This document shows positions 13,861 to 64,000 of a stretch of DNA of 64,000 nt, in pieces. Made by a program: the position numbers and the translations under genes. The stretch is from Geosiphon pyriformis uo1 (taxonomy: Eukaryota; Fungi; Glomeromycota), in assembly GCA_016748015.1 (NCBI GenBank), contig JAAOMT010000029.1:298896-362895 (forward strand), written 5' to 3'. The notes beneath the pieces were generated by a model that did not search any database, had not been told where the DNA came from, and worked only from the letters and a program-made list of their open reading frames with translations. Each line of letters opens with the position of its first letter. The first letter of the stretch is position 1.

Positions 13861-16800
13861 GCAATCTTAATTTTAATTGGTCTGAATAGTTTTTTGGATG
13901 TTTGTTTTAATAACATCTATAAACAAGCTAATTGGAATTAATAGAAGTTTAGAATTAAAGATATTGATAATGTCAAATAAGTACAGTTCAGAGAATGCAC
14001 TTCTAGTAAGTTGTTGGCAAAGTTTAGTATATTCAAAAAAATAAAATATTATAATAATTTAGATATAATATAGAAAGTGTTAAAAGAGACTATAGTGTAA
14101 TTTGCTAATATAGTGTTCTCTAAATATTGGTATAATAAGTATAATTATGTGAAAAACAAACTGTTATTAAAATTTTTTAAGTTGGAACTGCTTATAATCA
14201 AGATTGTAAAGAAGTAGTGTTTTGGTAATCTGTTGAAGTTTAAATGTTTAGTCAATGTTTGATTGTCAGTTAATAATATTGAGGCATCTAAAGTAGTCAA
14301 TATGGTTTAAGATTGTGTGAGATCAATAGATATTATTAGACATTTGTTACTAGTTAAGAAAAAATATTAACAGTTTAAATATTATGAGTTAAAGATATCT
14401 AAGAATATAACTATTAGAAAGGCAATTGAGTAATATATAAAAGATTTCTGCTCTGAAAAAAAAAATGATAAAGAGTATTTTAAAATAACTTTTTTACAAA
14501 GTTGTATTAGATTACTTAGTAATAAAAAATAAATTAATAGTAGAGTCTGAAAAGATAAAGCTCAAAATTAATAAAATTATAGAAAAGTAGATAAAAAAAT
14601 AATTAGTGTTTCAAAGGATATTTGAATTTTGGTTTTGCTAATATATGTTTTTGAATTATGTAGATAATAATGTCTTTTTTAATATAATAAATAAAATTAA
14701 TTTGAAAAAATTAGCTTTAGTAGTTAATAATTTGCCAAATAGCAAGACTGTTGGATTGTCTAAAATACCTAATAAACTTTGAAAACATTATAGTAATAAA
14801 GTGTTGAAATGCTTTTTGAGATTGCTTAATTTGTGTTTAACTTTGGATGTAGTTTTAGTTCCTTGGAAAAGAGCATAGGTTTCTATAATTTCCAAATCTT
14901 ATAAATAAAATAGTGTTTTAACAAATACTTGGCTTATTGTATTGATTAAGACAGCTAAGAAAATCTTGTCCAAGATCTTCTTTGATTGGATATTCTTAGC
15001 ATACAGTAAATTTGATGTTCTTTGTGATGCCAACTTTTCAGTATTAAAGAATATCTTAACTTAGTCTCTTATTTTTGCCATTGAATTTGTGGTTAAAGAT
15101 ACATTAGAGAAAAATAAAAAGCTTTAATTGGTTTTATAGAATATGTAAAAGGTCTATAATTTTGTAAGGTAATATTATCTAAGAGCTAGTTTGCAGCATA
15201 TTAAGATGTACAATCAGTTTATTAAATTTTTTGGCAACATACATAAAGATTAAATCAATAAAGTAATAACTAATTTTGGGCTTTTGAGTAGTTACAAAAT
15301 ACATAATGAGTTAAATCAGGATGAGGTTTTTTTTCTTCTTTTTTGAAGAATTTTTTATGATTTACTTTTATGTAAAGTTAAAAGGCATAAGCACTTATAT
15401 GAATACTGAATTAATACTAAGTTTGTAGTTAAAACTAGCAGAATTAAGGCTGTTGGTAAGAAAACTTCATTTTTTGCTGCTAATATATTCATTGATAACA
15501 CAATTTAGATTGAAAGTAGCCAAGTTTCTATGCAGTATATTTTAAATATTATATATAAGTTCTTTGATATTAATAATATTTTAATTAATAATAAGAAAAT
15601 AATGGCTATTTTTATTAATTAAAATGTTAAGATAGCTTTATTAATAATTAATAGTCTGCCGATTTTGATTGCTAAGAAAAGTAAATCACATAAATACTTG
15701 AGTATTTTTTTGTCAACTAAGAGTTTTTCTAAGTTTAGTTTGGCTTAAGCTCATGTAGATGTCAGGTTTTTTTTAATGTAGTATTGAAAAAAGTAATTAT
15801 AGATAAACAGTTTTCTTATTTGGTATTGGCTGTCTTACAATCCATAATTAACTATCAATTGCAATTTAGTTTTGTTTTGTTAGATGTGTGTTATAAGTAA
15901 AATGTAATGATTAAAAAAAGTCTTAAAGCCAAGACTGATTTATTACAAAACTTTTCCAATGAAGCTTTGTATTATTTATTTTTATATGATCTGTAACTTT
16001 TTAATCAAGTGCAGTTTGAAAAAAATTGGTTTTATTAATTGTCTTTTTTAATATACTAGATATTTTTGGACATTTGTTTAAACATAGATTTTTGGATTTA
16101 TAAATTTTGGAATGGTCTCCTTTAAATTCTTTGCAATTTTTTGTTAAGTTATATGTTAGTTCAATAAACAATTTTTTGGCCAAAGTGGTTAAAATTTTTT
16201 TAAATAATGATTTATTTTTAATAAACAATTTGTTCAGTGTTTTTTGTGATATTAATAGGATTCTAATGTTTGACATTTTGGGAAAAATTTTATATTATAG
16301 TTTTTTTTTTGAAATGTTTTGATATTGTTTTTGGTAACAGACTTTTGGACAAAAAAAAAAGTATTATAGACTAGAAACTATTTCAGAAGTGAAAAAAGTT
16401 GGATTTTAGGGGTCTTGTATTTTTTTGGTTTAAGCTGGCATCTGAGTTTTTAAATAGAATAAACTCTTTGGTTATTGGATTTGCTAATGCTCATAAGTTG
16501 TGTAAATTAGATGTTTTAATATCTAATAAGTTCTCTAATGTGCATAAAAGTTTGCTTGAAATTTGGTTTAGTTTTATTAAAGTTTATACAAACAGTTTGT
16601 TAAGATACACTGGTTCTGTTAAGATTACTAATAAGATAACTGCTTATTTTCCAGTTTTGGATGTAAATATCAGCATAAAAGTACATGGGCTTGTGTCTTT
16701 TATATTAACTGAATTATAAGCTATTGTGTTGGCATTAAAGTGTGTTTTATTTTCTTGTACTGTGGTTTTATATCTAAATAGCCAATCTGTAATTAATACA

Positions 16801-23742: not shown

Positions 23743-26360
23743 GCTTTTGTAGATAATAAGAATTATATAATAAAGAGTGTATTAGAAAGATCTTTTAGAA
23801 AAGTTATGCTAAATTATTTGGTTAACAATAATAAATTGGTTTTAAAGCCTGATGTAGTTAAGTATAGAGTTGATTTAATAATAAAAAATTGGGCCAAAAA
23901 ACACACAGTTAAATCTAATGTTTTTTTTATTGGCAAAGACAATTTGTACTTCTTAGTTATATTGCTAATAATGTATTTTCTGGTATAATGTTTTATATTA
24001 ACTATGATAAATTTTTACTGGTGATTAATGATTTTTTTGATGACAAAGCTACTGAATTGTTTGGTATTTCTAATAAGTTATAGAAGTATTGTAATAAGTT
24101 TGTTTTAAAATGTCTTTTGTGTTTATTTAATTTATGTTTGATAACTAAATTGGTTTCTAATGCCTAAAAAAAGACTTGGATGTCTATAATTTTAAAGTTT
24201 TATAAATGAAAAAGAGTTCTAATAAATACTAAGTCTATTGTTCTTATTGAAACAGTAAAAAAGATTTTTTCAAAAATTTTGTTTAATCATATCTTTAAAA
24301 CTTGCAGCAAGTATAATGTTTTGCATAAAGACAATTTTTCGGTTTTAAAGACTACTTTGACTTAATTTTTTATCTTTGTTATTGAATTTATGATTAAAAA
24401 CACTTTGAAAAAAGACAAAAAAATTTGGTTGGTGTTATAAAACATGTATAAAGCATATAATTTAATAGCCTAATTACATTTAAAAAATAATTTAATACAA
24501 ATCAAAATATGTAATAAGTTTATTAAATTCTTTAACTATATTTACAATAATCATATAAATAAAATTATAATAGACTTTGATCTGTTTAAAGATTACAAAA
24601 TTTATAACAAGTTAAATCAAAGCAAAGTTTTTTCATCTTTTTTTGAAGGATCTTTTATGATTTCTTTTTATATAAAATAAAAAAACAGAAATTTTTGTTT
24701 AACTATTATGTTAATTTTAAGTTTGTTGTTAAAACTGGCAAGATCAAATTAAATACTGGTCTGACCACTTATCTGGTTGCTAGTGCTTTTATAAATAATA
24801 TAATTTGGATTAATAATTGTTATACAACAATGCAAAATATATTAAACATTGCTAATGAATTCTTTAATATTATGGATATCTTAATAAATACAAATAAGAC
24901 AGTAGTTATTTCAATTAACTTAAAAGCCAATAATATTTTTTTAAACCTAAGTAATTTACTTATTTTGAGTGCTAAAATAAGTAAAACTTATTAATACTTG
25001 AGAATTTTTTTGTTAATTAAAGGTTTTTCTGGCCTTAATTTAAAGAAAGCCAATTTAGATGTAAAATTTTTTTTATTTATGGTTCTGTGCAAAGTTATTT
25101 TAAATAAACAATTTTTCTATTTGGTCTTGATTATTTTATAGTATATTGTTGAATATAGAATCTAGTTTTGCTTTATTAATAAAAGTATATATAAAAAATA
25201 AAACTGTTTAATTAGAAAAAGATTAAAGTTTAAGACCAGTTTGCTTAAAAACTTTCCTAATAAAGTGGTGTATTATTTGTCTTTATATAATTTAAAGCTT
25301 TTTGATCAGATACAAATAGAAAAAAAGATGACAGCAATAATGAATTTTGTTAATAGTAAAAATGTTTTTGGCCAGTTTTTCAGACATAAATTGCTAAATT
25401 TGCAGGTTTTAAGTTGAGTTCTTTATAATCTTCTTCAGTTTTTTGTTAAATTAAAGATTAATTTAATGAACAATTTTTTGGCTGGCATTATCAGAATATT
25501 TTTAAACAAAATTTGTTTTTGGCCAATAACTTATCCAGTGTTTTTTGTCTTAAGAATAACACTTCTGTTATGAATATTCTAAATAATATAGAATATTTTT
25601 AGGTTTGTAAGTTTTTGAAATGTTTTAATATTATTTTTGCAAACCAGTTTTTGAATAGTTATGAAAAATATTTTGTTTAAAAAAATTTTTGTTAATAAAA
25701 ATATTTAGATCTTAAAAATCTAACTTCCTTATAATTTATGCAAATTTTGAAGTTTATTAAGAATAATAATCTGGTCTAAAACCTTTTTTTTGTTTTTGAA
25801 AATTCTCTCAAAACAAGTATAACTAATATATATAACTTTGGTATTATTTGTTCCAGATTAAAAAATGTAAAATTTTGGTTTACATTAATAACTCTGTTAA
25901 AAACTTTAGTTCTTTTAATGTTGTTAATAATATAACTGCTTATTTTTCTAATCTGGGTCTGTTAATAAGAATAAAAGTGTAAAAACTATTATTTTTAATC
26001 CTAATTGAAATACAAATTATTGTTTTGGCTCTCAAATGTGTACTGGCTTCCTCCAAAATTACAATTTTTTTCAATAGTCAAACATTTTTGAATACATATT
26101 AAACTGAGTTAAAGTTGGTGGCTTCTGATTTTTACAACAGGTGCTGAGTTGAGCACTGCCAAGTCAGCAATTTGGTCAAAAATAAGAGTATTTTGGTAAT
26201 GTAAGCTAAAGTAAAGGATCATTTTGGTGTGTTGAATAATAAGTTTGTTGATAGGTTGGCAGATTGGGTTACATCTTCAGGACTTGCTCTTCTAGTTAAT
26301 ATTAAAGAAAAAGTTTTGATGGCTGATAATAAGGTGGTCTAGCAATACTTGCTGCTTTAT
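23743..26360 (+). mobile_element. Internal LINE ORF2 fragment (RT to RNase H)
   Basis: IKSVLERSFRKVML, ASAFINNIIW (decayed AFVDDTIW) and VKDHFGVLNNKFVDRLA. It ends at the VVSGN-like motif next to unique DNA. Confidence 0.88.
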
Positions 26361-28650: not shown

Positions 28651-30470
28651 ATGACTGAAAATTTTACCTGTTTGGATAACTTGATGTTAGAGAGCCAGGT
28701 ATGTTATATGTTTGCTGTAAAAGCATTCGATACCAATTCGAATAATCACGGGTTTCTTCAATAAAAGTCAGAAAAACTCTCTTGGATAGTCGCATTTATA
28801 TGGATTTTTGACAATTCAGTCGATCTAGCTCGCCTTAAAGATCTATTTAGGAAAATGGTTGAAGAATTTCCCCGACTTAAAAGCCGACCAACTGGCAAGC
28901 ATCTTTTGAGAAATCATAAATGGGAATTGATTGATGGGTTTGATGTTGATGACATTATTGAGACGCATAAATTTCCAATTTCGGCAACAATGAATCAATT
29001 TCAAGCTTATGCCTCGCGAGTAATTGGTGAACCACTTGATGATCACTCTCGACCATTATGGCGCCTATATGTCATCAATGGAATAGATGGTGTTCAAAAA
29101 TCCGCCATAATCATCAAAGCACATCATTGTATTACTGACGGGGAAGGTTTTATACGAGCAGTGTTGACAGCTTCCTTGGGTCGAGAAAACCTAAATGAAA
29201 CTTTTAAAATGGCGCGAGAAAGGATGGCTCCTCCTAAACTAGAACCAAGCGAACTACCGATCCTTCGACTTGCTGTTTTCAAACCTCATGTTGATAAAAT
29301 ACCAAAGGGTCTACTTAATCTTTATTATTTATTGCTTCAGATTTTATTTGCAATTAATTGGGCTTTTGTCGGTCTATGGGAATCAATCAGATTGAACACC
29401 ATTATCTTGGGCTTTCGCCGCAAGAATTTTCTATACAATCTTAACACAAATATCGAAAGTTCATCGCCCACGAAAACAATAAATTGGTCTGAAGAGATTA
29501 ATATAGAAGATATTCGAATACCGCGTAAAGCATACAAGGTTTCATTGAACGATGTCATGGTGGCCACAATAACGCGCGCTATTCGATCATATCTCGTTGA
29601 ACAGAATCGACTTCTTGATCCTAGTATTCTGTTATTTATTCCTCTTTCAATGCGAAGGAAAGATGATTTCAGATTTACGAATTTGGTATCTGGTGTTTAC
29701 GCATTTTTTCCATTCGCGGATTTGTCTACCAAAAACCTACTGAAAGCTGTCCATGAAGAAATGAATAAGGTGAAACGTAGTCTGGTGCCACCTTTGGCTC
29801 ATCTTTTTGCCGATAAAGTCTATATTCCCGGTACTCTTATTCCTCGACCATATCTAAATTGGATGTGCGGGCTTGGTCATGGCGTTGTATCAAATGTTCC
29901 GGTCAGTATTATAATAAAGCTGGTTTAAACTGGTTCAATTGATTAGATTCACAAATTAATTTCCCCTTTCTACTTTTAAATCAAGGGCCCTCCAAATACT
30001 ATCACAATCGCTGGGCAAGTCGTCAAACGCTTTCTGGCAGTGCCACCACAAAATACTCCTGGTGGTATGTCATCAAAGCTTATTGAAATATCGATTTTCT
30101 GTTGCGTTTCAAAAAACACTTTAACTGAATCAAGATATTAATTTAAACAAAATATACATTGCTTATTACACAAGGTTTGGCAATGGCAATTCTAAGCTAT
30201 AATGGCAAGATAACTCTGAGTATTTTTGCAGACAACCTGGTGGAATATCCCTTATTAACAAAACGCATTAGTGAACTTTTTGTTAAAGAATTTAACAAAA
30301 TTTTAGAAGATGCCAAATTTGAAATCGCACGAAGTGACAACGGAAATGAGGAAATGGAAAAGTATGGAAAAAATACTCTAAAGGAAAATCTTGGGAAAAT
30401 TTTTGGGCCAGTTCATATTGCTGGAATAATATTTCTGCTTCTGGGCATTTTCTGGGCTTTCTTTTTGTAA
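28651..30470 (+). CDS. Wax ester synthase/diacylglycerol acyltransferase (WS/DGAT family), 518 aa; exons 28651-28698, 28768-29901, 29986-30064, 30175-30470
   Basis: Catalytic HHCITDG (HHxxxDG), PLDDHSRPLWRLYVI, VSLNDV, the spliced SNVP|GP motif and ILSYNG. Three GT-AG introns join 1557 nt into one open frame. C-terminal hydrophobic tail. Confidence 0.93.
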
Positions 30471-33003: not shown

Positions 33004-33318
33004 TTATTCTTTTTTTTAATATTAAATTTTATTAAAATCTCTTAAATTTTTTTTTTAAATTAGTTTTATAATTTTTTTCTTTAGAATTACTTAAATAATT
33101 CTGGTCTGTAATTTTTTAAATTGAACATTGATAATTTTTTCCAATTGGTTAATAATTATTGTGTTTATTGTTAGATATAACAGTATTTTTGGACAGTTCT
33201 GAAATTTTGTTTATAATCAGTACATTACTTATGTCTGTATAGATAAATTGTTTTTTTTCAAAAATTGTTTTATTTATTATAATATTATTATATTAAACAT
33301 CTGTTTTGTTTTATCTAT

Positions 33319-33610
33319 TATTATAGATAATTATTTGAAATATTAAAACAAATAATAAATCTGTAACTTAATACTCAATAGCTATTAATAATAATAGTTT
33401 CTAAAAGTTTTATGATCTAAAAATTTTGGTTGAGTTTTTTGTATAATAAACAGAAATTCAATTAATGGTTTTTTCTGTAAATTTTTTTTTTAGTATAATG
33501 ACCAGTTTAATTTGGCAATCATGCTCTTTTGGTATACTATCTTTAAGTTTTTTATCTTTGTTTTATAAGTTTTTTAGTAAACTATTTTTAATATTAATTA
33601 TTTTAATCTT
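33319..33610 (-). mobile_element. Partial LTR (U5 end) inserted in G2 ORF3
   Basis: Repeats 32197-32490 (TATTATAGATAATTATTTG...ATAATAAACAGAAATTCA). G2 ORF3 sequence resumes after a deletion. Confidence 0.7.
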
Positions 33611-36126
33611 TGTTTTTCTTTTTTTTTTTGTGTTTTTATAACAAACTGTTTGGTAATTAATAATAATTTCTATGTCTAATTGTTGTTAATTTATGGTTTG
33701 GAACAATTATTGTGCTATTATATAAATATAATCTGAAATTTTTATTTTTTACTGTTGTTTTTGTTGTATATATTGTTTTTATATACTTTTATCTTAATTT
33801 ACTTTTCATGTTTTTTTTGATAATTATAATTGGTTTCAAATCTTGTGAAATCTTATTTGGTTTGACTAGTATTTTTTGTATTCTTAGTTGTAAAATATTA
33901 TTGGTAGATAATAATACTATATTGTAATATAGTTTTAATTAATTATTATGTATTGCTTTGATTAAAATTTTGTTGTTTTATCTTAATTTATAAGCTCTAT
34001 TTTTTAGAATTTTTTCAATATAGCATGAACTATCTTATTTGAAGTTAAACTTTTTATTCTATTGTTTTTTTCATTTTGGTATAATTTAAGAGTACTTTGT
34101 TTTCAATCTTAAATTCGACTTATTTATTTGATAACTGGTTGTTATATTGTTTTTTTTGTTTTTTTTGTAAATTTTATATGTTATTAACTGTTCTTTATTT
34201 TTTATTTTTTAAAGTTTTTATTAAGTTATATATTCTTTTTAACAATATTTCTTAAAAGTTAGCTTTTATTATTGGTTTTGTTAAATATGTATTGATATCT
34301 ATTTTAATTGATAATATTGCTGTTTTACTATAAACTAATTTAAATAATGTTGTTTATATAATATCTTGCTTTATTGTTCAATAAATAAGTAATACCAATA
34401 GTATAAACAAATTTTATATATTCTAATTTTCTTGATTAATCTTAACTATTGTTTTACACAATGTTTTGTTGAATTTTTTGACTAAGTTATTTGTTTGTAA
34501 ATAATATAAAAATGATAGTAGTCTTTTAATTCCAAATCTTTGACTTAATTTTGCTAATGTTTTGTTTATAAAATAAGTTTTTTGGTCTAATAACAATTTT
34601 TTTAGACGTCTATATTAATAAATCAAATTCTAATATATGAATTTGACTATAAATTTTGCATTTGCTCTTTAAATAGCTTTAGCTTTTGGCTATTTTGTGA
34701 AATAATTCATAACTACTACTATGTATTAGTTGTTTTTACTAGTTATTATTAATAGTCTTATTAAGTTAATTTTAATTCAATCAAATAGTTGTTCTACTTT
34801 AATTGGTCTTAGTGGTTTACTGGATCTTATTCCTTTTTTTTTTAATAAATATCACAATTTTGAACATATTAAATAATGTCTGGATATATTAATGGCTAAT
34901 AATATTTTTTTTTGGTTTTTTTCATAATTGCTTCTTTATAGAAATGTTCTAATGTTGAATCTAAATACATATTAAATAGTATTGTTTCTTTTTTTGTTTC
35001 TGTAATTACCTTAAGTGACTGGTTTAGATCTTTTTTGTTTCTCTAATATAATATATTTTAATAGGTAATAAAATATTTTAATTGTTGTTTTATGTTGTTT
35101 TGTTTTTTTTAAGATAATTTTCTCTTGAATTATTGAGTATTAATATAATATTAAAATTGTTAATATTTTTATGTATTCATTTTTTGTTATATTTTTGGGT
35201 TAAAATGTTTTTAGATTTGTTTTATTTATAATAAGCTATTAGTATTTCTATTTTTTTTTATAATATATTATATAATTAAATAGTAATAGTTTTATTTTTT
35301 ATCTTATATAATAATTGTTTTCAAATTTTTGCTTTTGGATTAATTTTAATCTTTTATAATCAGTATATATATCAAACTTTTGACTTAAATATTTTTCTAT
35401 TTGATAACAGTTTAATAAATATTTAAGTATATTAATACTGAGATATCATAGTTTTTTTTGGCTAAACTCCAACTTTAATTGGCATATACTACTAGATATT
35501 TTTGTCTATTTGGTTTTTTTTGTAATAATATTGCTCTCAATATTTGGTCTAATGTATTTATTATAATAATAAATAGTTTGTAATCTGAATAGATTAAAAC
35601 TAAAGCTTAAATAAGCTTTTGTCTTAAAGTATCAAAGACTTTTTATTGTGTTTTAGTCTATTTATATTTGGTGTTTTTTACTTAAAGGTAGTGTAATAAT
35701 TGAGTCAGTTTAAAGAAATTCTGAATATAATAACAATAGTATTTAGCAAATTTCAAAAATGTTTTTAATTTTATCAAGTTTGTTGATATTAAAAAGTTTT
35801 TAACTATTTCAATTTTATCTGAATCTGTTTTAATGTCATTTTTGCTTATAACATATCCCAAAAACTTGAGTTTAGTTTTTTCAAAGAAATATTTAATGGC
35901 ATTTAGTTTCAATTTAGCTCTTCTTAACTATTTAAACACTTGTTGAAAATAATAAAAATAATTATCAAATGTTTTGGAGAACATATTAGTATTATTTTAT
36001 ATTTATTTATTTAACGAGTGAGGTCCAAACACTACCTAGTACAATACATCATACAAGTGATCTAAACTAGGCATGAATCATGCTCTTTCTACACGTGACC
36101 AGCCACTCAGACTAGTCAGGACAACA

Positions 36127-43555: not shown

Positions 43556-44514
43556 TGTTATCAGTAGAATTTTAACTATTAATTAGCATAAAATTACCAT
43601 TTTAATTTCTATTATTAATTAATATATATTATTATCATTTCAATTATCACTTATTATTTAATTAAATTATCAAATATTATTATTTAATTAATAATCTGAT
43701 TTGTATCATAGAAATTAAAATAATCAAATTACACAATACCCTAAACCATTTAATATTTAGAAATTTGCCGAAATTAACAGAAATTGGTCGAAATAATCAA
43801 TAATTTGTAAAAATAACTTGTAGTTTGCCAAAATATATCTTTAGTTTGCTAAAATTAGAGCAAAAAGAAAAGTGCAAGTTCAAAAACTAGTATTACAACA
43901 AGTTGTATAAAAAAAGAACTTCTTTCTTCAAAAAATGTATCTTACCATAGTATTTTACTCTTTAGATATCTTAATTAGAAACAAATTATCTCTTACATAT
44001 CTTTACAAAAATAAAAATAAAAATTAAATATTCGAAAACCAAATCCTTAATTATTACACTTGAAATTTTTTTAAAACAACTAACATTTTGAAATTGATTA
44101 GCTACCAATTTCAGTAATCTGTTAATAACTCCAGACTTGGATAGAAAACGTTTCTCTTGACACAATTCTATTTCTTTTACTTTTTTTTTCTTTTTTTATT
44201 ATAATTATTAAAGTAATCTACAAACCAGATTCTTGTAGAAGAGTTGACTTTTACAGCAAAGTAACTACACATTTTTAGTAAGCTTCTAAACAAGCAATTT
44301 CTGGAAAAGAGTTGATATTTACTACAATATAATTATACAAAGTAACTGGCATGAAATTGACCATTCCATTTATAAGCCTAGCAGTTCAAATTATAGGAGA
44401 TTATTAAAGATAAATTCAGTTATTAGAGGTCCAACTACTTCCAAAAAAATATGAATTTACAACCAATAGGCATTAACAACATTTAAGAAAAGAGACCAAA
44501 AACCTTCAATAACA
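43556..44514 (+). mobile_element. Solo LTR (family C), 959 bp, 4-bp TSD ATAT/ATGT
   Basis: TGTTATCAG...CAATAACA, colinear with the reverse complement of 61715-62704. Removing it restores G2 pol (HIKI). Confidence 0.9.
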
Positions 44515-53100: not shown

Positions 53101-53386
53101 TTATGCCAGTAGAAACTTAAGTCCAGCAAAAAAAAACTATGAAACTCCAGCACTGGAACACTTAGCCATTTATTGGGCTGTTACAAAATGGAAAAAATAT
53201 TTGAGTCAAAAGTTCAATGTGTACACTGATCATAAAGGATTGACTTTAATCCAAAAACAAAAATTTGCAGATGATCACTATGTCAGATAGAAAATAGAAC
53301 TTTCACCATTCAATTATACAATACATTATAAAAAGAGAAAAAACAATGGAAATGCTAATAATTTGTCGAGAATGAGACAAATGTAA
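47123..53386 (+). pseudogene. gag-PR-Cys-rich-dUTPase-RT-RNase H polyprotein of G3
   Basis: Track fragments from 47216 to 52885 share one frame. Motifs: CHYCSKQRHLQFEC, LILDSGSASSII, SRSSLA, GYVG, GFGS, VMPFGLMNAPATFQ, YLNDT, TTNASG, YTDHK, NAN.LSR. Confidence 0.9.
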
Positions 53387-53416
53387 AAACATTTCAACCC
53401 AAAAATATAACAAAAG

Positions 53417-54514
53417 ATGAATATACAAAAATACCAACAACTTTAACATTATATAAATACCCAATTGTTTAAGGAGAAATTATTTCAAAGAGAACAAAGA
53501 AACATAAAACAACAATCAAAATATTTCATCAACCATCAAAATATATTTTACTGGAAAAATAGAAGAAATCCAGATCAACCAACCAGAGTAATCACAAAAC
53601 TAAAGAAAGAGACAATACTATTCAACATGCACTCAGATCCAACAGTAGGACATTTTCATAAAAAAACAACCATAAAAAGAACTAGAAAAAGATACTATTG
53701 GCTATCAATGTATCCAGACATTATTCAGTATGTTCAAAATTGTGATGCTTGTCAGAAAAGAAGAGGAACAAAACCCAGTGAACTATTGAAACCAATTAAA
53801 GTGAAACAACCATTCAATTGCATTGGAATTGACTTAGTTGGACTATTAACAATCACCAGCAGAGGCAACAGATATATTGTAGTAACCATAAACTATCTCA
53901 CAAAATGGCCAGAAGCAAAAGTCATTTAAAAAGCAGATGCAGAATCCATTGCCAAATTCGTTCATCAAGATCTGATTTGTCAACATGGATGTTCAAAAGA
54001 ATTATTATCAGATCAAAGAACTTATTTTGTGAATAGAACATTAGCAAAATTAAGCCAAAAATTTGAAATAAAAAGACCACTATCATTACTATACCATTCA
54101 CAAACAAATGGGTTAGTTAAAAGGTTCAACAGAATACTGTGTGAAGCAATAGCCAAAATTAGCCAAGAAAACCAGGACGAATGGGATTTGTTTATACCAT
54201 CAGTATTATTTGTTTATTGAACAATGAAGCAAGATACCATACAAGCAACACCATTTGAATTGATATATGATAGAACAGCAACATTACCAGTTGAGATAAA
54301 GATCAATACATATCCAACTGAACCAATAACAAAAGATAATTTCCAAGAAACATTGTTAAGAAGAACATATGACTTAATAGAAACATTAGAAAACAGATGA
54401 TGAAAAGCAGCTGATAACATCCAAAAGTCACAAGAAAAGCAAAAAGAATGACATGATAACCAACTACCAGATAAATCAATTGAATTCAAGATTGGAGACA
54501 AAGTACTATTACAT
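53417..54514 (+). pseudogene. Integrase of G3 (truncated)
   Basis: HHCC (MHSDPTVGHF..CDAC), IGIDLVG, LSDQRT, NGLVKRFN. Confidence 0.9.
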
Positions 54515-55404
54515 TGTTACAAGTGATTCTTTGGGAGGTCAAGTGAATAACAAACCTGTAACTTTGTGTTCAAGATGATTGGCGACAATGATAATCTGAA
54601 GGTATTTTATCTGAAGGTTTTCCAATTGAATTCTTTGTATAATAGACAGAGATTCAATGGTAACAGTTTATTAGTAGTTTCCTAAAACCGTTGTTTTGTC
54701 GATGGCTTGCTCAGCTTAATGGTTGATGATTCTCCTAGTATGATATTCTCCGTAAGTGTATACCAGTGCTGTTTGCTGACGTCAGTTCCTCCATAAGTCC
54801 TCCAAGAGTAAGTATTGTTTAAGTAAGTTTTATTTCTCCGTAAGTCCTCCAAGAGTAAATTTTTTAATCAAGTTAGTAGACAATAAAGAAAATAAAGAAA
54901 AAATAAAGAGAAAATAAGAAATAAGCCAAGGTGATTTGCAAATTAGTATCTCATCAATAGCCATGATCAAGAGTTATTGTTCTAGTATGGTTAAGTATCA
55001 GTTACTATCAACATAAAGTGTTGATAGTGAAAAATAAATTGGATATAATGAATAATTATTTATTTGAAAATTGTGGTAACTAAGCTAAGAATTCTTGGTG
55101 TTGATTCTGTCTTTTCTGCTTCTAATGCTACTACTATATATACATATTTGAGATTTCTCAATTCCTTAATTCCTTGTAACAGGAATTCTGGAATTCCTAG
55201 AATCTTGCGATTTCTGATGAGAAGAATCCTGGAATTCTGGAATTCTGGAATCCTGCAATTCCTTGTTGGAGAATCCTAAAATTTCTGGAATCCTGCAATT
55301 TCTCTGAGAGGAATCTTGAAATTCCACATTTACTATGTCTATATCTGATTGTCTTAATATCTACTGACTAATAATACTATATTTCCTATATTCTATGAGT
55401 AATA
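54515..55404 (-). repeat. 3' LTR of G4 (family B), 890 bp
   Basis: TGTTACAAG...ATGAGTAATA. It shares the hairpin core and TATA region with family A but carries a GGAATTCT-type U3 array (55150-55325). Confidence 0.9.
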
Positions 55405-55419
55405 TTATCCTCTCCTTTT
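55405..55419 (-). promoter_or_regulatory. Polypurine tract of G4
   Basis: Minus-strand AAAAGGAGAGGATAA immediately before the LTR. Confidence 0.85.
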
Positions 55420-56077
55420 AATATTGAGCTCCGTCGAAATCTAATTCTTTTAATTCTCCCTCTTGAAGTATTTCCTGAATTTCGTTTTCAAGAATTACTT
55501 GTGTTATTTGAGTCTGTAATTTTTCAAATTGAGCATTGGTGATTTTTCCCAATTGATTACTGGTAACTGTATCCATTGCTTTGTTGAGTAGGATTTCTGG
55601 TTGATCTTAAAATGCTGTGTGTATTCGGTATATAGCTCGAGCTTGTGTGGATAAGTTGTTTTTCCCTACAAAATGTTCTAGTTGTTGTAGTATTGTTGTG
55701 TCGAATAACCACTTTGTTTTATCTGTATATAAGTTCTGGATATTCACATGTTGTCCCAAGTAAAAGTAACAATAATTTTTTGGAAATTGTTGTATCTACC
55801 AAGTCCAAGTTTCTCTAGTAAGTTCTTGGTGTAATCTGACTATTTGTTGTTCTTTTATGGCCAATTTTATCTTGGTCATGATCTTGTCAACAACATTTTC
55901 AAGTCTTTTTTGTGCTTTGTTTTGTAATATCTTTGTCATATTTTTGTAACAAATGGTTTGTTGATTGATTGTAATTTTTATCTCCTAGTGTTGGATTAAT
56001 TGAAAAATTTGTTGGGCTAGTGAATGGATATTGTCCATAATTTCCATTTTTCTGATCTCTTTTGTCGCGTCAACCAT
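55418..56077 (-). pseudogene. Extra 3' ORF (ORF3) of G4, 219 aa, unknown function, 3 nonsense codons
   Basis: Hand translation MVDATKEIRK...NYCYFYLGQ...QARAIYRIHTAF*DQPEILLN...LGKITNAQFEKL...DFDGAQY* with no frameshift; protein similarity to G5 ORF3. Confidence 0.8.
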
Positions 56078-56100
56078 GTTCTTATATATTCTTTTGTTGA

Positions 56101-57483
56101 TCAATTGGACGTGTTGTTGTCAATAATAATGATTGGTTCCAGATCTTGTAGAATTTTATCTGATTGGACTAGTATCCTCTGTACTTCTAATTGTGAAATA
56201 TTACTGGTAGATGATAATACTGTATAGTGATATGGTTTCAGTCAATCTCCATGTGCTGCTTTGGTCAAGATTTTGTTATTCAATTTTAATTTGTAAGCTC
56301 CATTTCTTAGAATTTCTTCTATGTGAAATGGTCCGTTCCATTTGGAGTCAAATTTTCTACTCCATTGTTTTTCTGCTTTGGTATGATGTAGTAGTACTTT
56401 GTCTCCAATCCTGAATTCAACTAGTTTATCTGGTAGTTGGTTATCATGTCTTTTTTTTTGTTTCTCTTATAACCTTTGTATGTTATCAGCTGCTTTTTGT
56501 CATTTGTTTTCTAATGTTTTCATTAAGTCATATGTTCTTTTCAACAATGTGTTTTTGAAATTCTCTTTTGTTATTGGTTCGGTTGGGTATGTGCTGACTT
56601 CTATTTCCACTGGTAGTGTTGCTGTTCTACTATATACTAATTCAAATGGTGTTGCTTGTGTAGTATCTTGCTTCATTGTTCAATAAACAAATAGTACTGA
56701 TGGTATCAACAAATCCCAATTGTTCTGGTTTTTTTGGCTGAATTTAGCTATTGCTTTACACAATGTTCTGTTGAATCTTTTGACTAATCTATTGGTTTGT
56801 GGATGGTATGGTGATGATAGTGGTCTCTTAATTCCGAATCTTTGGCTTAATTCTGCTAATGTTCTGTTCACAAAATGAGTTTCTTGGTCTGAAAGTAATT
56901 CTTTTGGACATCCATGTCAACAGATCAAATCTTAATAAATAAATTTGGCAATGGATTTTGCATCTGCTCTTTGAATTGCTTTTGCTTCTGGCCATTTAGT
57001 GAAATAGTCCATGGCTACTGCTATGTACCTGTTTCCTCTGCTGGTAATTGTTAATGGTCCAACTAAATCAATTCCAATACGGTTGAATGGTTGTCTCACT
57101 TTGATTGGTCTTAATGGTTTATTGGGTTTTGTACCTCCTTTTCACTGACAAGCATTACAATTTTGAACATATTGGATGATGTCTGGATACATTGATGGCC
57201 AATAGTATCTTTTTCTGGTTTTTTCCATGGTTGCTTCTTTGTGAAAGTGTCCTGCTGTTGGATTTGAGTGCATGTTGAATAATATTGTCTCTTTTTCTGG
57301 CTCTGTAATTACTTTGGTTGGTTGCTCTAGATCTCTTCTATTTTTCCAATACAGTATATTTTGGTGAGTAATAAAATATTTTGATTGTTGTTTGATACTC
57401 TTTTGTTCCGTTTGAAATAAATTCTCCTTGAACTGTTGAGTGTTTATATAATGTTGCAGTTGTTGATATTTTTGTATGTTCAT
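56101..57483 (-). pseudogene. Integrase of G4 with GPF-type C-terminus, no chromodomain
   Basis: MNIQKYQQL, HSNPTAGHF..CNAC, IGIDLVG, LSDQET, KRFN, WNGPFHI; stop at 56101. Confidence 0.9.
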
Positions 57484-57553
57484 TTTTTTTTTTTTTTTTA
57501 TATTTTTCATTGGTATTGTTCTGGTTTTGTTATATTTTTGGGTTGAAATGTTC

Positions 57554-60500
57554 TTAGATTTGTCTTATTCATGACAAACCGTCAGCATTTCCATTGTTTT
57601 TTTTTTTTTTATAATGTATAGTATAATTATATGGTGCGAGTGTCATTTTCTATCTTGATTATTTTTCGTTTCCGAATTCTTGTTTTTGAAGTGATGTTAA
57701 TCCTTTGTGATTTGTGTATACTTCAAACTTCTGGCTCAAGTATTCTTTCCATTTCATGACTGTCCAGTATATCACTAAGTGTTCTTGTTTCAGTGTTCCA
57801 TAGTTCTTTTTGGCTGGTGTTAAACCTTTACTGGCATATGCTACTTGATGTTCTCTGCCATCTGGTCCTCTCTGAGATAGTACTGCTCCCAATGCTTGGC
57901 CAGATGCATCAGTGGTAATGATAAATGGTTTGCTGTGATCTGAATAGATCAGTACTGAAGCTTGAATGAGCTTTCTTTTCAGAATATTAAAAGCTTTTTG
58001 TTGACTTTCTGTCCATTCATATTTTGTATTCTTGGTTTGCAGTTGGTTGAGTGGCTGCGCTATCTTGGAAAAGTTCTTGATAAAACGTTGATAGTAGCTG
58101 GCGAATTCCAAGAATAATTTCAGTTCTGTCATATTGGTTGGCACTGAAAAGTTTTTTACTATCTCTATTTTCTCTGGATCCATTTTGATGCCATCATTGC
58201 TGACTATGTGTCCCAAGAATTTTAGTTCTGTCTTGCCGAAGAAGCACTTTGTTGCATTTAACTTTAGTCCTGCTTTTCTTAGTCTTTCGAACACTTGTTG
58301 AAGATGATGAAAATGATCATCAAATGTTTTTGAGAATACATTGGTGTTGTCTAAGTATACAACTACTGATTTTCACAATAAGCCAGTATAAATAATTTCC
58401 ATTAGCCATTAGAAAGTTGCTGGGGCATTGGTTAAGCTGAATGGCATTACTTCAAATTCAAAATTTCCTTCTCTAGTGGTAAATGCCGTCTTTTCTTTGT
58501 TGGCTGAATTCATGGCTACTTGCCAGTAACCACTGTCCAGGTCTAATGTTGAAAACCATTTGTTTCTACCGAAAGCATTGAATAATTTTTGGATCCGTAA
58601 AGTGGAGTAGCTATCTCTATGAGTTACTCTATTGAGTTTTCTATAATCTACACAAAAGCAAATTTTTCCATTTTTTTTCCGGATAAGTACTACTGGTAAT
58701 GACCATGGGCTCATTGATGGCTGAATTAGCCCATTGTCAAGCATTCAGTTTATCTCTTGATGGATAATCTCATGGCTGGCTGGTGGTACTCTGTATGCTC
58801 TTTGTTTAATTGGCATTGCATCTTCAGTCTTGATCTGATGCTGGATAATATCAGTTTGGCCAAACTCGTTTTTGTTGGCAAAGATGTTGTTGAAATTGTT
58901 GAGCAACATCTTAAGTTGCATATGTTGGAATAGATCTAAGTTTCTCATGTTCATTTGTTCCAACTGTTCTGGTTGGAGCAAATAATATTCACTTCGTCTG
59001 TATATTGTTTGTGATATGATATCGACATATCCACAAAGCTGTAGAAAGTCTGGAATGGTGCTTAGTGGTTGATCCTCTATTTCTGTGGTCAAATATCCGA
59101 TGATGGTTCCTTCTGGTATATTAACAATATTTCCGGTGTTGTTGTAGATAGGAATTTTGATGTGGTTATAGTTCTTGGCTGGTAAGTGAAGATTGATGAG
59201 TCCAACTTCTCCTGATTTACAAAGACTTGTTTCTGCTTCAAAAATTTGTGCTTGGTCTTTTATCTTCCTCTCTATTGTTATCATGTACTGGTCATATGGT
59301 GGAATGGAAATTGCTTGACTGGTTGAGATAATTTCTCCTTGGCCAACAATTTCTTCTTCTGCCATATTGACTGGCACATCTATTCTATCTGTTGATCTGA
59401 ATCCCTGTATTTCTCTTGCTGTTATTCCTAATTTCTCTCTTTTTCTCACTGATACTAACTGAGCTACTCTAACCAGAGACAGGAATATTGCCTGTGCTAT
59501 CTTTTCATTGGGCTCTATTATATAGGCCTTTTCTGAGTCATTTTGTAGTATAGCGATGATATTTCCTACATATCTCACATCAATTATTCCTTCTCTTATA
59601 TTAATCTCTCTTTTTGCTAAACTGCTCCTAAATGCTAATTGAACTATTGTTGTTGCCAGAATTTCTAGTGTTACTTTCAAATCAATGCAGGTGCATGAAT
59701 GTGGTTTCAATTTAATGGCTTCTTTTTCTAGATACTTCAGATTAAACCTGGTATCAATATCATGTGCACATTCAGGCATGATACCTTTATCATTATCACT
59801 GAACTATTTTAGTTCCAATTCCTTGGTAAGGTCAGAGATTGTGATATATTGTTTGTATTTTGTATTGGAGTTTGAATCTGAGTTGGAATTAGTATCGTTG
59901 TTATTGCCATATTGAATGGAGCTAGAACCAGTGTTTTCGTTGTTATTATTGTCGGGATTTGAATTGGGATTGAATGGTGATTCTGATTCTGATGCGCAGC
60001 TGCTGATTGGTTCCTTTTCCTCTGGGATCATGTAGATTATGCGGATTGGTGGATTGTAAATAAGGTTACACTCATTACAATATTGAAAGTTATATGAAAT
60101 TAAACAGTGGTCACATAATTGAGTGTTTAGCTGTGCTAACCACTCTTCTTGTTTTTCTCTTGTGGGTGCTAGTTGTTGATAGTGTTCGTGAAATTCCTTG
60201 GAATCATCCTCAATGTTGCCAAAAACATCGAATGTTGCAACATATTTTGGTTCTGGGAAGGATAATGGATTGGTTTTGATTTCCCACAACTCGCTGATTG
60301 TAGCTCCTTCTGCCATTGCATATGCCATTCTCCAGATCTCATGTTTGTTATGTGGGTAGCCTTCCAAACATCTTAAGGCTCATTTCCATGTATCATCAAT
60401 TAAGGTCTCTTTTCATACCCAATTATTTATTAGGATTGTGTACTGGCATGTTTCATCACATGTTCTTCCTTGTCCTGGAATGTCATTCCATATTCCTTTA

Positions 60501-61705
60501 TCCAGAAGCATTTTTCCACATGCTAGACATGGTGTATTGTCCCATTTTTTTATTTTTAGTGGTCAGCAATCGCATTCAATAATATATAGGCGACAATAGT
60601 ATCATGTTGTTATCTGTTAGTTTTTGTCATTGTCACAACATGCACTCATCGTTGACAATTTCTTACCACAAGTGATGCATTCGAGTTTAGGTCAATGGTA
60701 GGTGGCCTGAGTTTGTATAGAATATGGGACATATGTAGGGGTGGTAGATTGTGCTGGCTTATCTTCTTGTTCTTTCCCTTTTCTTTTCTCTTCTCAAATC
60801 TATTCTGTGGTTGGTTCACTTTGGCTGTTATTACTCCAAAATCTCTGATTTGTTCCCCAGATAAGTTTTTCTTCCTCTTTCTTTTTCTTTTTGTCATTCC
60901 ATGATAGTATAGGTGGTAGTTTGTTGTGGTCAGCATCAGCCCAGGAGACTTGGTAAGCTTCTCAGATAGGTTTTTCTTTTGTCTCCTCCAGTTCGATCAA
61001 TAGTTTCTCTCTTGGCAGAGTTTTGAAATGGCCACATGTGGCCGATACACGTATGTGTTAACCCTAATATGTTAGCTAGAGTTTTTGGGTGTTCCAGTCT
61101 AACGTTGCATTGACTTTGAATAGCCAGTCATTACCAATGAGAGCTTGGTATTGAGTAGCTTCCATCACTAAAACTTTAATGGGAGTCATAATGCCATTGA
61201 CTTTGAAAGAAAAGTCATCAATTTTGCCGATTGAAGTTTTGATTACTCCATTGGCTGTGATGATTCTGGCGCTGACAGCTTGATCAACTCAGCGACTTAA
61301 TTGATCCATAAGCTGTCTTGTAATAATGCTGCCAGCTGATCCACTATCTAAGATGAGTTTGATGGGATAACCATCAACTCTGACATCCATGTATATCACT
61401 GTGATGAGTTTTTCTTTGAGGGTGGTTCCACTAAATAACAGTACTAGTGTGGTTTCTTCAAGTTTGAAAGGAAAAATAGCTGCTAGAGATTTGTTGTTGG
61501 AGATGGTTGCTGGTGGAATCATGTTGGTAAGTAATTGCTGATTGGATTCTGGTTTGTTAGATGTGGTATCTTCTGGGATAACCAGGAAACTTAAATAGTA
61601 TTGAAAATTTGGATTTTGGACGTGACCAGTATCCAAATTCCGTGAGCATGATCCTAATTATGGGTTTGATAAACTGGAGACCAGTTGGTGAACAACCATT
61701 GCTGA
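57554..61705 (-). pseudogene. PR-Cys-rich-dUTPase-RT-RNase H region of G4
   Basis: Track fragments 61289-61636, 59804-60367, 58745-59779, 58409-58744 and 57659-58294 share one frame. Motifs: FRSSLA, GIIDVRYVG, EKIAQ, LDLDSGYWQ, TTDASG. Confidence 0.92.
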
Positions 61706-61714
61706 TGTTACCAG

Positions 61715-62704
61715 TGTTACCGGAGGTTTTTGGTCTCTTTTCTTAATTGTTGTTGATGCCTGTTTGCTGTGAATCTACATTTTCTAGATGTGGTTGAATC
61801 TTCAGTAACTGAATTTATCTTCAAATTATCTTCAAATTATCTCCTATAATTTAAACTGCTGGACTTATAAGTGGAATGGCCAATTCTGTGCCAGTTACTT
61901 TTGTAGTTATGTTGTAGTAAACATCAACTCTTTCCCAGGAATTGCTCGTCTAGAAGCTCACTAAAATGTGTAATTACTTTGCTGTGAAAGTCAACTTTTC
62001 TACAGGAATCTCATCTGTAGGCTACCTTAATGATTATAATAAGAAAAGAAAAGAAAAATAAAAGAAATGTAAAAGAAATAGGATTTTATCAAGAGAAATG
62101 TTTTTCTATCCAGGTCTGGAGTCACTAACAGTTTACTGAAATTGGTAGCTAATCAATTTCGAAATATTAGTTGGGTTTTGGGGATTTTCCAAGTGCAATA
62201 ATTAAAGAATTTGGTTTTTCGAATTATTTGATATTTATTTCTTTTTGTGTATATAGGAATGGTTCTAAGAGATAAATCTAAAGTAAAATACATTTCCTCG
62301 AAGAGAGAAGCTCTTCTTTTATATAACTTGTTGTAACACTATTTTATGAACTTAAACTTTGCTCTTTTCTACAATTTCGCTGAACTAAAGATACATTTCA
62401 GTGAACTATAAGTTATTTCTGCAAACTATTAGATATTTCAGTAAACTATCAATTATTTTGGCAAATTTCTACAAATTTTGGCGAACTTTTTGAATGTTAC
62501 ATAATTCAGGGTATTGCATGATTGATCATCGCGATTAGGTTATATTTGTGTTATGTACAAATTGGGTTATTAATTAAATAATAATTTTGGACATTTTGCT
62601 AATATACTAAGTAATAATTTGAAACGATAATATATGTTAATTAATGATAGGAATTATAAAAATAATTTCATGTTAAATAATATCTCTAATTTCGTCTGGT
62701 AACA
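61715..62704 (-). repeat. 3' LTR of G5 (family C), 990 bp
   Basis: Homologous end to end with the solo LTR at 43556-44514. Confidence 0.9.
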
Positions 62705-63392
62705 TAACCTCTTCCTCAAGACTGAGCTCTGTTAAAGTCCAAGTACTGTCTGTAATTTCCAGATAGTAATCCAAAATTATTGAAGAAATTTGGTCTGAAA
62801 ATTGTTGAAATTTCAGTTCTGTGAACTTTCCAATGTATTGAATCTTCAAAGGTCGTAAAATTGGGTTTTGTAGGACATTTTCACAGGTGTGGAATAGGTC
62901 ATAAAGTCTAAGAGCAGCTTTGAGCTTGTAGTGACTGTTTGTTGGTCCAGCTGTTGTCTTGAATTTGTTGTGGAGTTGTTTCTAAATAGCTTCTTTTGTG
63001 AGATTTGCTGTTGTAAGTTCCAGTTTCTGTTCATAGAGTGTTTTTCCAATGTGAAAATATCTATAGATTGGAGGATATTCAGTGTTTTCTTTATTGAGAC
63101 ACAGTTGAAGTCTTTGTTAAATTGTAGTATTTGGTGGAATACTAATCGGAGTGAGCATTAAGTTTTCTCTTAAAGCAAGCTTTAAAAGTTCTGGCAGGTG
63201 AATTCCAGAATAACTTCTTGTGTTCTTTTTATATGGGTAATATTTTCATGAATTTGGGGTTAGTTTTGTAACTACTTCTGTTTAGGTATAATTAATGTGG
63301 TTTCCAGTAACAGTAATGGATAATTCGGGTATTGTTTTTAAAGCTAATATTAGTTTTTGAGATAATTGTTGAATGTTTTGAGGAATAGTCAT
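62673..63392 (-). pseudogene. Extra 3' ORF (ORF3) of G5, 239 aa, 4 nonsense codons, runs through the PPT into U3
   Basis: Hand translation MTIPQNIQQLSQKL...IYRYFHIGK...KLKAALRLYDLF...IGKFTELKFQQF...EEEVMLPDEIRDII*; 720 nt with no frameshift. Confidence 0.8.
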
Positions 63393-63495
63393 TATAAGAG
63401 ATTTGAAATAAAAGAATATTTTTGGTGTATGGGTTTTTATGTTATTTTTGTTTTGATTATTTCTAAATTATAAGGGAATAACTAGTAAAGTTAAA

Positions 63496-64000
63496 TTAAG
63501 TGTTCAGGTTGGAAGGTTGTTCAATGACAACTATTGGTTCTAAGTTTCAGGGAATATCTTCGGAATTGACTAAAGGGGAATGTATACCAATTTGTGGAAT
63601 TAATGGTTCAGGATTGTTTCTGGAATGATAATGTTTCAAACAATCTCTATGTACAACTTTTGCTAGGATTTTGTTATCAAGTCTTAGCTTGTATGATCTA
63701 TTGCTTAGGACTTCATGGATAAAGAATAGTCCATCCCATTTATTTTCAAATTTTCCACTCCATTGTTTTTCAGCTTTAGTTCTGTGTAAGAGAACTTTGT
63801 TTCCGATTTTAAATTCATTGGTAACTGGAGGCAATTTGTCATCATGCTGTTCTTTTTGTTGAGCTTGAGAGTGTTCAATATGAGTGGCTGCTATTCATCA
63901 TTTTCCTTCCAATGTGCTAAGCAGAATGTAGGCTCTTCATTGAAGTGTTTTCTGGAAATTGTTTTTATTGATTGGTTGTGCTGGGTATGTTTCCACTGTG
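63496..64000 (-). pseudogene. Integrase C-terminus of G5
   Basis: EFKIGNKVLLHRTKAEKQWSGKFENKWDGLFFI...YKLRL, ending NLEPIVVIEQPSNLNT*, similar to G4 DLEPIIII. Confidence 0.88.

Follow-up and report, generated by a model that had tools for sequence, protein, structure and literature searches.

Two reading frames in the 64,000-nucleotide stretch of Geosiphon pyriformis DNA that we analysed (the window) are dead copies of a genuine third gene of the Ty3/Gypsy elements of this fungus, here called ORF3. They belong to the elements G4 and G5, and a further copy was found in the element G2:

55418..56077, minus strand: ORF3 of G4 (subfamily C), 219 codons, nonsense codons at 31, 94 and 157
62673..63392, minus strand: ORF3 of G5 (subfamily A), 239 codons, nonsense codons at 37, 49, 92 and 137
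33035..33733, minus strand: decayed ORF3 of G2, split by an LTR-end duplicate at about 33317-33624

The sequence-only reading that drew attention to these frames had described them as ATG-led and free of frameshifts with three to four stops each, and translation confirmed this with three stops in G4 and four in G5. All motif pairs quoted from the two proteins were found, as was the ungapped block of 53 residues. The proteins align with 22% identity (BLASTP, E 6e-10) and a Smith-Waterman score of 108, which none of 2,000 shuffled controls equalled (maximum 83). That the underlying DNA is diverged also held, since blastn yielded no significant match between the two ORF DNAs or between the LTRs of the two elements. 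The decayed copy proposed for G2 is real (tblastn E 5e-14).

Open natural copies of the gene exist, G9A89_002837 and G9A89_013590 among them: 67 of the 120 G5-type matches listed are open over at least 90% of their length, and 3 of the 119 G4-type matches listed are near full length. At the positions of the stop codons of the window, open copies carry Q, W or R, and the CpG observed/expected ratio is 0.31, which we count as a sign of host pressure. The gene had been called hidden, which is not so genome-wide, because gene callers have annotated many of the copies: at least 239 protein clusters in NCBI, listed as hypothetical host proteins, are ORF3 copies or fragments, and in 20 of 331 fetched proteins the C-terminal sequence of the integrase was fused on by the gene callers. 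ORF3 falls into several subfamilies with 14–66% identity to each other, and full-length frames are kept across 14–37% identity and across hosts. A sense frame between pol and the 3´ LTR is kept across copies and families (G4, G5, G2 and L001); L001, an unrelated metagenome contig, shows the same order of integrase, spacer, open ORF3, PPT and LTR. Long branches meet in the ORF3 tree, which was left out of claims about origin.

The core of ORF3 is under purifying selection. A GY94 codon model run with our own script gave an omega of 0.17 (62 codons, four elements, p 4.5e-7; LRT 25.5, versus 0.43, 5.7 and 0.76 in other frames), and 0.34 for the ORF3 pair of G4 and G2 (p 0.02). One simpler count was not significant: with transitions weighted, pN/pS for G4 versus G2 was 0.71, and 190 of 2,000 permutations were as low. 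The comparison with the integrase was made by unweighted counts instead, which gave 0.15–0.39 for the integrase, 0.33–0.41 for the G4/G2 ORF3 pair, 0.36–0.79 for distant ORF3 pairs and 0.58–0.79 for LTRs. ORF3 and the LTRs diverge faster than the integrase.

The elements themselves have the architecture of Ty3/Gypsy retrotransposons with the exception of the integrase (see below). The order gag, protease, reverse transcriptase, RNase H, integrase was found with Pfam and tblastn in G3, G4 and L001, the protease being assigned by a weak Pfam match plus position. The LTRs have ends of the TG...CA type, with a single transition to TA at the start of the G4 LTR, and a PPT lies ahead of the 3´ LTR. 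The chromodomain that marks chromoviruses was not found: the integrase C-terminus gave no match to it, and weak SH3_Tf2-1 matches on G5 and L001 only. The following features surround ORF3 in the window:

54515..55404, minus strand: 3´ LTR of G4, with a short repeated motif in U3
55408..55419, minus strand: PPT of G4, directly at the ORF3 stop
57557..61640, minus strand: rest of G4 within the window (partial gag, protease region, dUTPase, reverse transcriptase, RNase H), decayed
61715..62704, minus strand: 3´ LTR of G5, 990 bp
62707..62717, minus strand: PPT of G5, within ORF3 and encoding an acidic EEE stretch
63393..63495, minus strand: spacer from the integrase stop to ORF3 of G5, G-poor with 2 G in 103 nt
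63496..64000, minus strand: integrase C-terminus of G5, SH3-type domain with a weak match to Pfam PF24626
43556..44514, plus strand: solo LTR, 74% to the G5 LTR, its first bases matching the coding tail of ORF3 of subfamily B

The elements of the window are nested in one another; G5, for example, is an insertion within the gag region of G4. The frame had been placed between the integrase stop and the PPT. This is correct for G4, in which the ORF3 ATG is located 23 nt downstream of the integrase stop and the PPT follows the ORF3 stop, but not for G5, in which ORF3 crosses the PPT and ends 32 nt inside the 3´ LTR (LTR start at 62704). The G-poor spacer of G5 may serve as a leader or an internal promoter.

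A further trait of these elements concerns the integrase, which Ty3/Gypsy elements have fused within one Pol frame. Such a fusion was seen in none of the four elements; in all four, a stop follows RNase H and the integrase begins with its own ATG:

56101..57483, minus strand: integrase of G4, an ATG-led frame of its own, decayed with stops and frameshifts
57484..57556, minus strand: RNase H stop of G4 with the A/C-rich spacer that leads to the integrase ATG
53384..53419, plus strand: corresponding junction of G3, with the stop after RNase H, a second stop and the ATG of the integrase
35178..35213, minus strand: corresponding junction of G2, with the stop after RNase H, a second stop and the ATG of the integrase

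The distance from RNase H to the integrase is 24–30 nt in L001, G2 and G3. When CAA/TAA sites were compared between G3 and G4, 38 were CAA in both and 7 were discordant; only 2 were TAA in both, and these are the junction stops. Recurrent mutation yields shared stops as well, as at four other sites that are stops in both elements. An intron spanning the junction was rejected because the GT is present in G3 alone. The integrase thus looks like a separate cistron, and the element therefore has three reading frames. Very probably, the lineage is organised as three cistrons, namely gag-PR-dUTPase-RT-RH, integrase and ORF3, each of the two internal ATGs being preceded by a G-poor spacer.

What does the product of ORF3 look like? 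The highest mean hydropathy (Kyte-Doolittle, 19 residues) is between 0.27 and 1.29 in eight of eight members, so that, as stated before, the protein has no TM segment and is not an env; in the hydropathy profile, the N-terminus likewise shows no hydrophobic window that would suggest a signal peptide. The predicted structure is mostly helical and the model confident (pLDDT 79); a first model (pLDDT 47, best fold match at Z 5.3) was set aside for this better one. Together with the open natural copies and the omega of the core, this bears out the description of ORF3 as a selected, soluble, helical accessory gene. The data thus establish where the gene lies and that it runs in sense orientation, that natural copies are open, that its subfamilies are deeply diverged, that the layout recurs outside Geosiphon, that the core is under selection and that the protein lacks a TM segment.

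The ORF3 protein matches no named family. Searches of Pfam, PHROGs and PDB sequences returned nothing at curated cut-offs; a Glypican match below the cut-off (E 1.9e-5) was confined to subfamily C and is treated as composition. With the better model, Foldseek gave no match at E 0.001 in the viral and PDB libraries, and none of 48,161 chains reached Z 5 in a wide fold search, although such a lack of matches to a predicted structure is no proof of a new fold. Weak echoes in sequence and structure lead to helical cores resembling a helix-turn-helix: DUF1016_N, the N-terminus of YhcG, was matched at E 0.037–0.16 in Pfam and at 0.85 in the ESM Atlas, and the DNA-binding domains of Spo0J, KorB and ParB at Z 3.3–3.7 over 59–95 residues (rmsd about 5 Å for the two longest). 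The ParB domain and YhcG-N align with each other at 94%, and these matches are weak leads pointing to one superfamily. However, hhalign against self-built profiles of YhcG-N (71 sequences) and ParB (27 sequences) remained at shuffle level, with probabilities under 1%.

Our tentative proposal, to which we give somewhat less than an even chance, is that the soluble product of ORF3, of which the window holds mutation-killed copies, works in the nucleus, where it binds nucleic acid and acts on the LTR of its own element as an activator or anti-silencing factor. An internal promoter or reinitiation would provide for its synthesis, and a basic PY linker for its import into the nucleus; its helix-turn-helix-like core would bind family-specific repeats in U3, countering methylation-based silencing and raising the expression of its own element family. 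A nuclear role is likely, judging from a basic [RKH]x2-5PY motif in the linker, which we take to be a PY-type nuclear import signal; eight of 11 natural representatives carry it, as do 47 of the 79 G5-type proteins that cover the linker, and P46 and Y47 are invariant in alignment A3. The conserved G-K-T-N turn, R149/R155 and G-K-x-T make nucleic-acid binding likely. The weak leads to helix-turn-helix domains, the signs of host pressure and the faster divergence of ORF3 and LTRs also count in favour of the proposal.

Several results speak against such a regulator, among them the profile comparisons at shuffle level, the fold searches that stayed empty and the transition-weighted count for G4 and G2. 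In addition, the PY motif is missing from P0332 and from subfamily C, to which ORF3 of G4 itself belongs, and isoelectric points range from 5.1 to 9.3 among members. For the putative targets in U3, the results go both ways. In U3 of G4 the top 7-mer occurs five times, a count reached in none of 100 shuffles, and repeats were significant in two of seven LTRs (G4 and the 13k solo LTR) and borderline in L001 (7 of 100 shuffles); in the other four, that of G5 among them, they were not enriched. One 7-mer of L001, picked post hoc, is confined to U3 (three times) and the region upstream of ORF3 (twice); in G5, by contrast, the stretch upstream of ORF3 lacks the U3 motif, and in G4 it has one partial match. 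The observation made in the sequence-only reading is confirmed and its interpretation partly supported.

Alternatively, ORF3 might act on RNA, exporting or protecting the three-cistron genomic RNA or promoting reinitiation for the integrase, an explanation that we consider rather unlikely. It would be analogous to TAV/P6 of CaMV (PMC5902531), which serves polycistronic translation, and CERV of the C. elegans element Cer1 (PMC10309623), both described as extra proteins by which reverse-transcribing elements serve their own RNA. The ATG-led integrase behind a stop, the position of ORF3 as last gene, its basic linker and its distance from the integrase in G4, similar to that between RNase H and integrase, fit such a role. 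Yet no likeness to TAV or CERV was found in Pfam, PDB sequences or fold, short spacers may permit reinitiation without a helper, and the fast divergence from family to family would suit a target peculiar to each family better than the conserved ribosome. CERV is reported to come from a spliced mRNA (PMC10309623), whereas a conserved splice site was not seen in the Geosiphon elements.

An integrase apart from Gag-Pol would need another way into the particle, and ORF3 could be the cofactor that tethers it to particle or chromatin in place of a chromodomain. The integrase C-terminus without a chromodomain match and the nesting of the elements within the window agree with this, but no reader or targeting fold was matched, and we regard it as unlikely. 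Improbable, in our view, is capture of a viral or host gene, either the coat protein of a filamentous virus or an unnamed helical family of Mucoromycota, whose product would now serve packaging or passage from one nucleus or hypha to another. In the ESM Atlas, the top cluster for the relative P0283 was an unnamed Mucoromycota family (0.94), followed by a closterovirus coat protein cluster (0.93), and with Z 4.0 the coat protein of an archaeal filamentous virus turned up in the fold search. However, the Atlas recognition of 2186 is under the threshold of 2300, the coat-protein cluster has 156 shared features only, no closterovirus protein is among the 50 viral fold matches listed, none of which reaches E 0.001, and no relative was encoded on the viral contigs and plasmids searched. 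For the loose likeness to a helical family of AM-fungal proteomes noted in the sequence-only reading, this Mucoromycota cluster is a lead. That the frame is a functionless passenger which has stayed open through base composition and recent amplification has the dead window copies, the non-significant G4/G2 count and the few near-full-length G4-type frames in its favour, but is largely refuted and highly improbable given the full-length frames across distant subfamilies and hosts, the low omega of the core and the confident predicted fold.

Additional ORFs are known from other LTR retrotransposons. The aORF-3S, which lie in sense orientation from pol to the 3´ LTR (Vicient and Casacuberta 2020, PMC7264820), share position, orientation and the presence in many copies, and their function is given there as unknown; the plant examples presented are env-like, some with TM segments, whereas the Geosiphon ORF3 is soluble, fungal and without a Pfam family, is preceded by an integrase in a frame of its own and, in one clade, extends over the PPT into the LTR. 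Fungal Gypsy elements with a dUTPase between PR and RT were described by Novikova et al. 2010 (PMC2864245), in which a figure legend mentions an 'add. ORF'; the dUTPase-bearing context is shared and the ORF may be comparable, the survey as cited here covering no Glomeromycotina and leaving the ORF uncharacterised. In bdelloid rotifers, dUTPase-bearing lineages likewise have, in the place of env, a third ORF that is not an env (Rodriguez et al. 2017, PMC5408684); the families named in that account, GDSL esterases, DEDDy exonucleases and TM proteins, did not match ORF3 in Pfam and sequence searches. As working model for the proposed regulator we use VANC of Arabidopsis TEs (PMC5735166), portrayed as a TE-encoded, fast-diverging protein that is specific to its family and has its target motifs in tandem, in a host that methylates; VANC stems from plant elements, and no homology to ORF3 was seen.

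Our literature search, which did not reach the Geosiphon genome paper and Repbase, found no description of this ORF3 or of the split integrase, and we know of no LTR retrotransposon of fungi with a protein for anti-silencing or transactivation. Conceivably, although the chances are low, an old fungal Gypsy lineage no longer makes one Pol polyprotein but uses three cistrons, and carries in the env slot a family-specific nuclear regulator of undescribed fold that co-evolves with its own LTR repeats against methylation silencing.

How the element produces and packages an integrase that is not fused to the rest of Pol is a question posed by the separate frame. Since open natural copies exist, the ORF3 protein can be expressed without repair. 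At least 239 hypothetical protein clusters of Geosiphon are copies or fragments of a retrotransposon gene, which affects comparisons of gene content among mycorrhizal fungi. In G. pyriformis, 41.2% of the genome is reported to consist of LTR sequences (PMC11952901). For such an expansion in a repeat-eroding host, a regulator encoded by the elements themselves offers an explanation that can be tested, and, if true, a family-specific regulator of the LTR may explain the LTR expansion of Geosiphon.

ORF3, the extra frame between integrase and 3' LTR of Ty3/Gypsy elements in Geosiphon pyriformis, is a real multicopy gene. The sequence-only reading had proposed it from the elements G4 and G5, and both frames were recovered as claimed:

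56077-55418, minus strand, ORF3 of G4 (subfamily C), 219 codons with 3 stops
63392-62673, minus strand, ORF3 of G5 (subfamily A), 239 codons with 4 stops

The two proteins can be aligned at E 6e-10 and 22% identity, and none of 2,000 shuffles reached their Smith-Waterman score of 108. The DNA is diverged and the LTR families are separate, as had been stated, without a significant G4/G5 match in the ORF3 DNA or in the LTRs, and the decayed copy in the element G2 is real as well. The placement of ORF3 before the polypurine tract (PPT) held for G4, in which the PPT follows the stop, and failed for G5, in which it is located within the frame (62717-62707) and ORF3 ends 32 nt inside the LTR.

With the G4 frame as query, 119 clusters were identified from 223 candidates; with the G5 frame, it was 201 clusters from 411 candidates. 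Among the matches listed, all 119 G4-type and all 120 G5-type rows are annotated as "hypothetical protein" of G. pyriformis, and 67 of the 120 G5-type and 3 of the 119 G4-type rows combine at least 90% query cover with no more than 6 gap columns. At the stop positions of the window copies, open copies encode Q, W or R, which fits decay of the window copies by C-to-T and G-to-A changes. When a profile was run against 1.84 billion representatives, 113 matches resulted; the origin of ten of these, mainly divergent ones, is Geosiphon (6) or metagenome proteins (4). Ten subfamily representatives show pairwise identities of 11-66%.

The window consists mainly of nested, decayed repeats and has a CpG observed/expected ratio of 0.31. 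G5 was inserted into the gag region of G4, and G4 (minus strand) into the integrase of G3; both G4 and G5 have their 5' ends outside the window. Further features are:

28765-29928, plus strand, WS/DGAT host gene, matching G9A89_005716 of the glomeromycotan fungus Geosiphon pyriformis at 100% identity
36127-42752, minus strand, LINE-like element with long open frames and weak RRM and endonuclease matches
near 2309-7057, 11907-16353 and 23754-25701, decayed copies of the LINE-like element
12976-13872 and 43556-44514, solo LTRs from two separate families, their 4-bp flanks almost matching

At E 0.001 the database search gave the WS/DGAT gene only four relatives, of which two, at 23-25% identity, are distant. 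The elements G1 and G3 share a primer-binding-like motif starting TTTGGTGCTCC, located just after 18924 and 47102 (plus strand) past the 5' LTRs, which may resemble the complement of the tRNA-Ile 3' end.

A metagenome scan confirmed at least two ORF3 relatives among 589 candidate stretches. The contig L001 contains, in this order, RT, RNase H, an SH3-bearing integrase, a spacer of 316 nt, an open ORF3 of 230 codons and the LTR start, with the PPT placed inside the ORF3 end; over RT-RNase H it shares about 50% identity with G3 and G4. The 7-mer TTGCCCT, picked out post hoc, occurs in L001 at 2258, 2279, 3403, 3471 and 3564, within 3.7 kb only in U3 and upstream of ORF3, and is a candidate for a shared promoter motif. 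The contig L002 carries a partial ORF3 without flanking pol; the interval directly 5' of it (398-811) is open over about 128-137 codons, gave no match in a Pfam search and is possibly a fourth gene of that lineage.

In all four elements G2, G3, G4 and L001, a stop just past the RNase H terminal motif is followed by an ATG 24-70 nt further on:

53384-53419, plus strand, RNase H stop to integrase ATG in G3
57556-57483, minus strand, RNase H stop to integrase ATG in G4
35213-35178, minus strand, RNase H stop to integrase ATG in G2
772-801, RNase H stop to integrase ATG in L001

Of 47 CAA/TAA sites common to G3 and G4, 38 are CAA in both, 7 are discordant and 2 are TAA in both, the latter being the junction stops. 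Four further sites are stops in G3 and in G4, showing that recurrent mutation occurs. From these sequences, pol appears to be split, with integrase likely its own cistron; we put it no higher because shared stops also arise recurrently. G-poor spacers are located 5' of integrase and 5' of ORF3; only 6 of 938 minus-strand windows of 110 nt contain at most two G.

For the ungapped 62-codon core of G4, G2, G5 and L001, GY94 gave an omega of 0.17 (LRT 25.5, p 4.5e-7), for a core that was selected for protein similarity and has synonymous sites close to saturation; the remaining frames of this core gave 0.43 (p 0.034), 5.7 and 0.76. Across 93 DNA-aligned codons of G4 and G2 omega was 0.34 (p 0.02), with 39, 20 and 37 differences at codon positions 1, 2 and 3 (position 2 versus 3, p 0.011). 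Transition-weighted counts argue against selection, with a pN/pS of 0.71 for G4 versus G2, as low in 190 of 2,000 permutations, and of 1.14 for the 53-codon G4/G5 block. We read the data as suggesting selection while the families diverged, then neutral decay of the window copies.

The protein is soluble and not an env, as anticipated, since a TM-like window was absent in all eight members tested. AlphaFold2 with a 58-sequence alignment (mean pLDDT 79.3, pTM 0.66) predicted an N-terminal helix with a beta-hairpin, then a basic linker that is flexible, and a helical core modelled with confidence. Pfam, PHROGs, PDB-sequence and structure libraries gave no named match. Weak leads pointed to ParB-like helix-turn-helix domains; profile-profile tests of ORF3 against YhcG-N and ParB were negative, and the control pair, DUF1016_N (the YhcG N-terminus) versus the ParB DNA-binding region, reached an hhalign probability of 94% (E 1e-7). 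In the ESM Atlas the neighbour of one ORF3 relative is a Mucoromycota cluster without a name (0.94, at low recognition), which would agree with the helical family of AM fungi mentioned in the sequence-only reading. A basic PY motif, presumably an import signal, is found in the linker of 8 of the 11 natural representatives and is missing from the subfamily of G4.

Tentatively, and with somewhat less than even confidence, we infer at every step that the ORF3 product would be a nuclear nucleic-acid-binding factor that lifts expression of its own family via the LTR. This reading is suggested by the PY linker, by basic residues kept around the helix-turn-helix-like turn, by the fast divergence of ORF3 in step with the LTRs, by U3 repeats in two of seven LTRs (borderline in a third) and by the methylation-scarred host. 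It is less likely that ORF3 is an RNA-level helper of a three-cistron RNA. A role as cofactor of integrase or of the particle is rather improbable, and capture of a coat-like or host gene still more so. That ORF3 is without function is hardly credible.

Additional ORFs are common in this slot, and those lying between pol and the 3' LTR form a known kind according to excerpts of PMC7264820 and PMC5408684; an excerpt of PMC2864245 notes fungal Gypsy elements with a dUTPase and an unnamed additional ORF. VANC (PMC5735166), TAV (PMC5902531) and CERV (PMC10309623), anti-silencing or RNA-level proteins of other elements, serve as analogies. The portions covered of PMC3248453 and PMC2836005 contain nothing on ORF3, and no description of the family was found in the literature searched, a scope outside of which lie the Geosiphon genome paper and Repbase. 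ORF3 is a real, unnamed, soluble family of a fungal Gypsy lineage, and this lineage is probably a three-cistron one.
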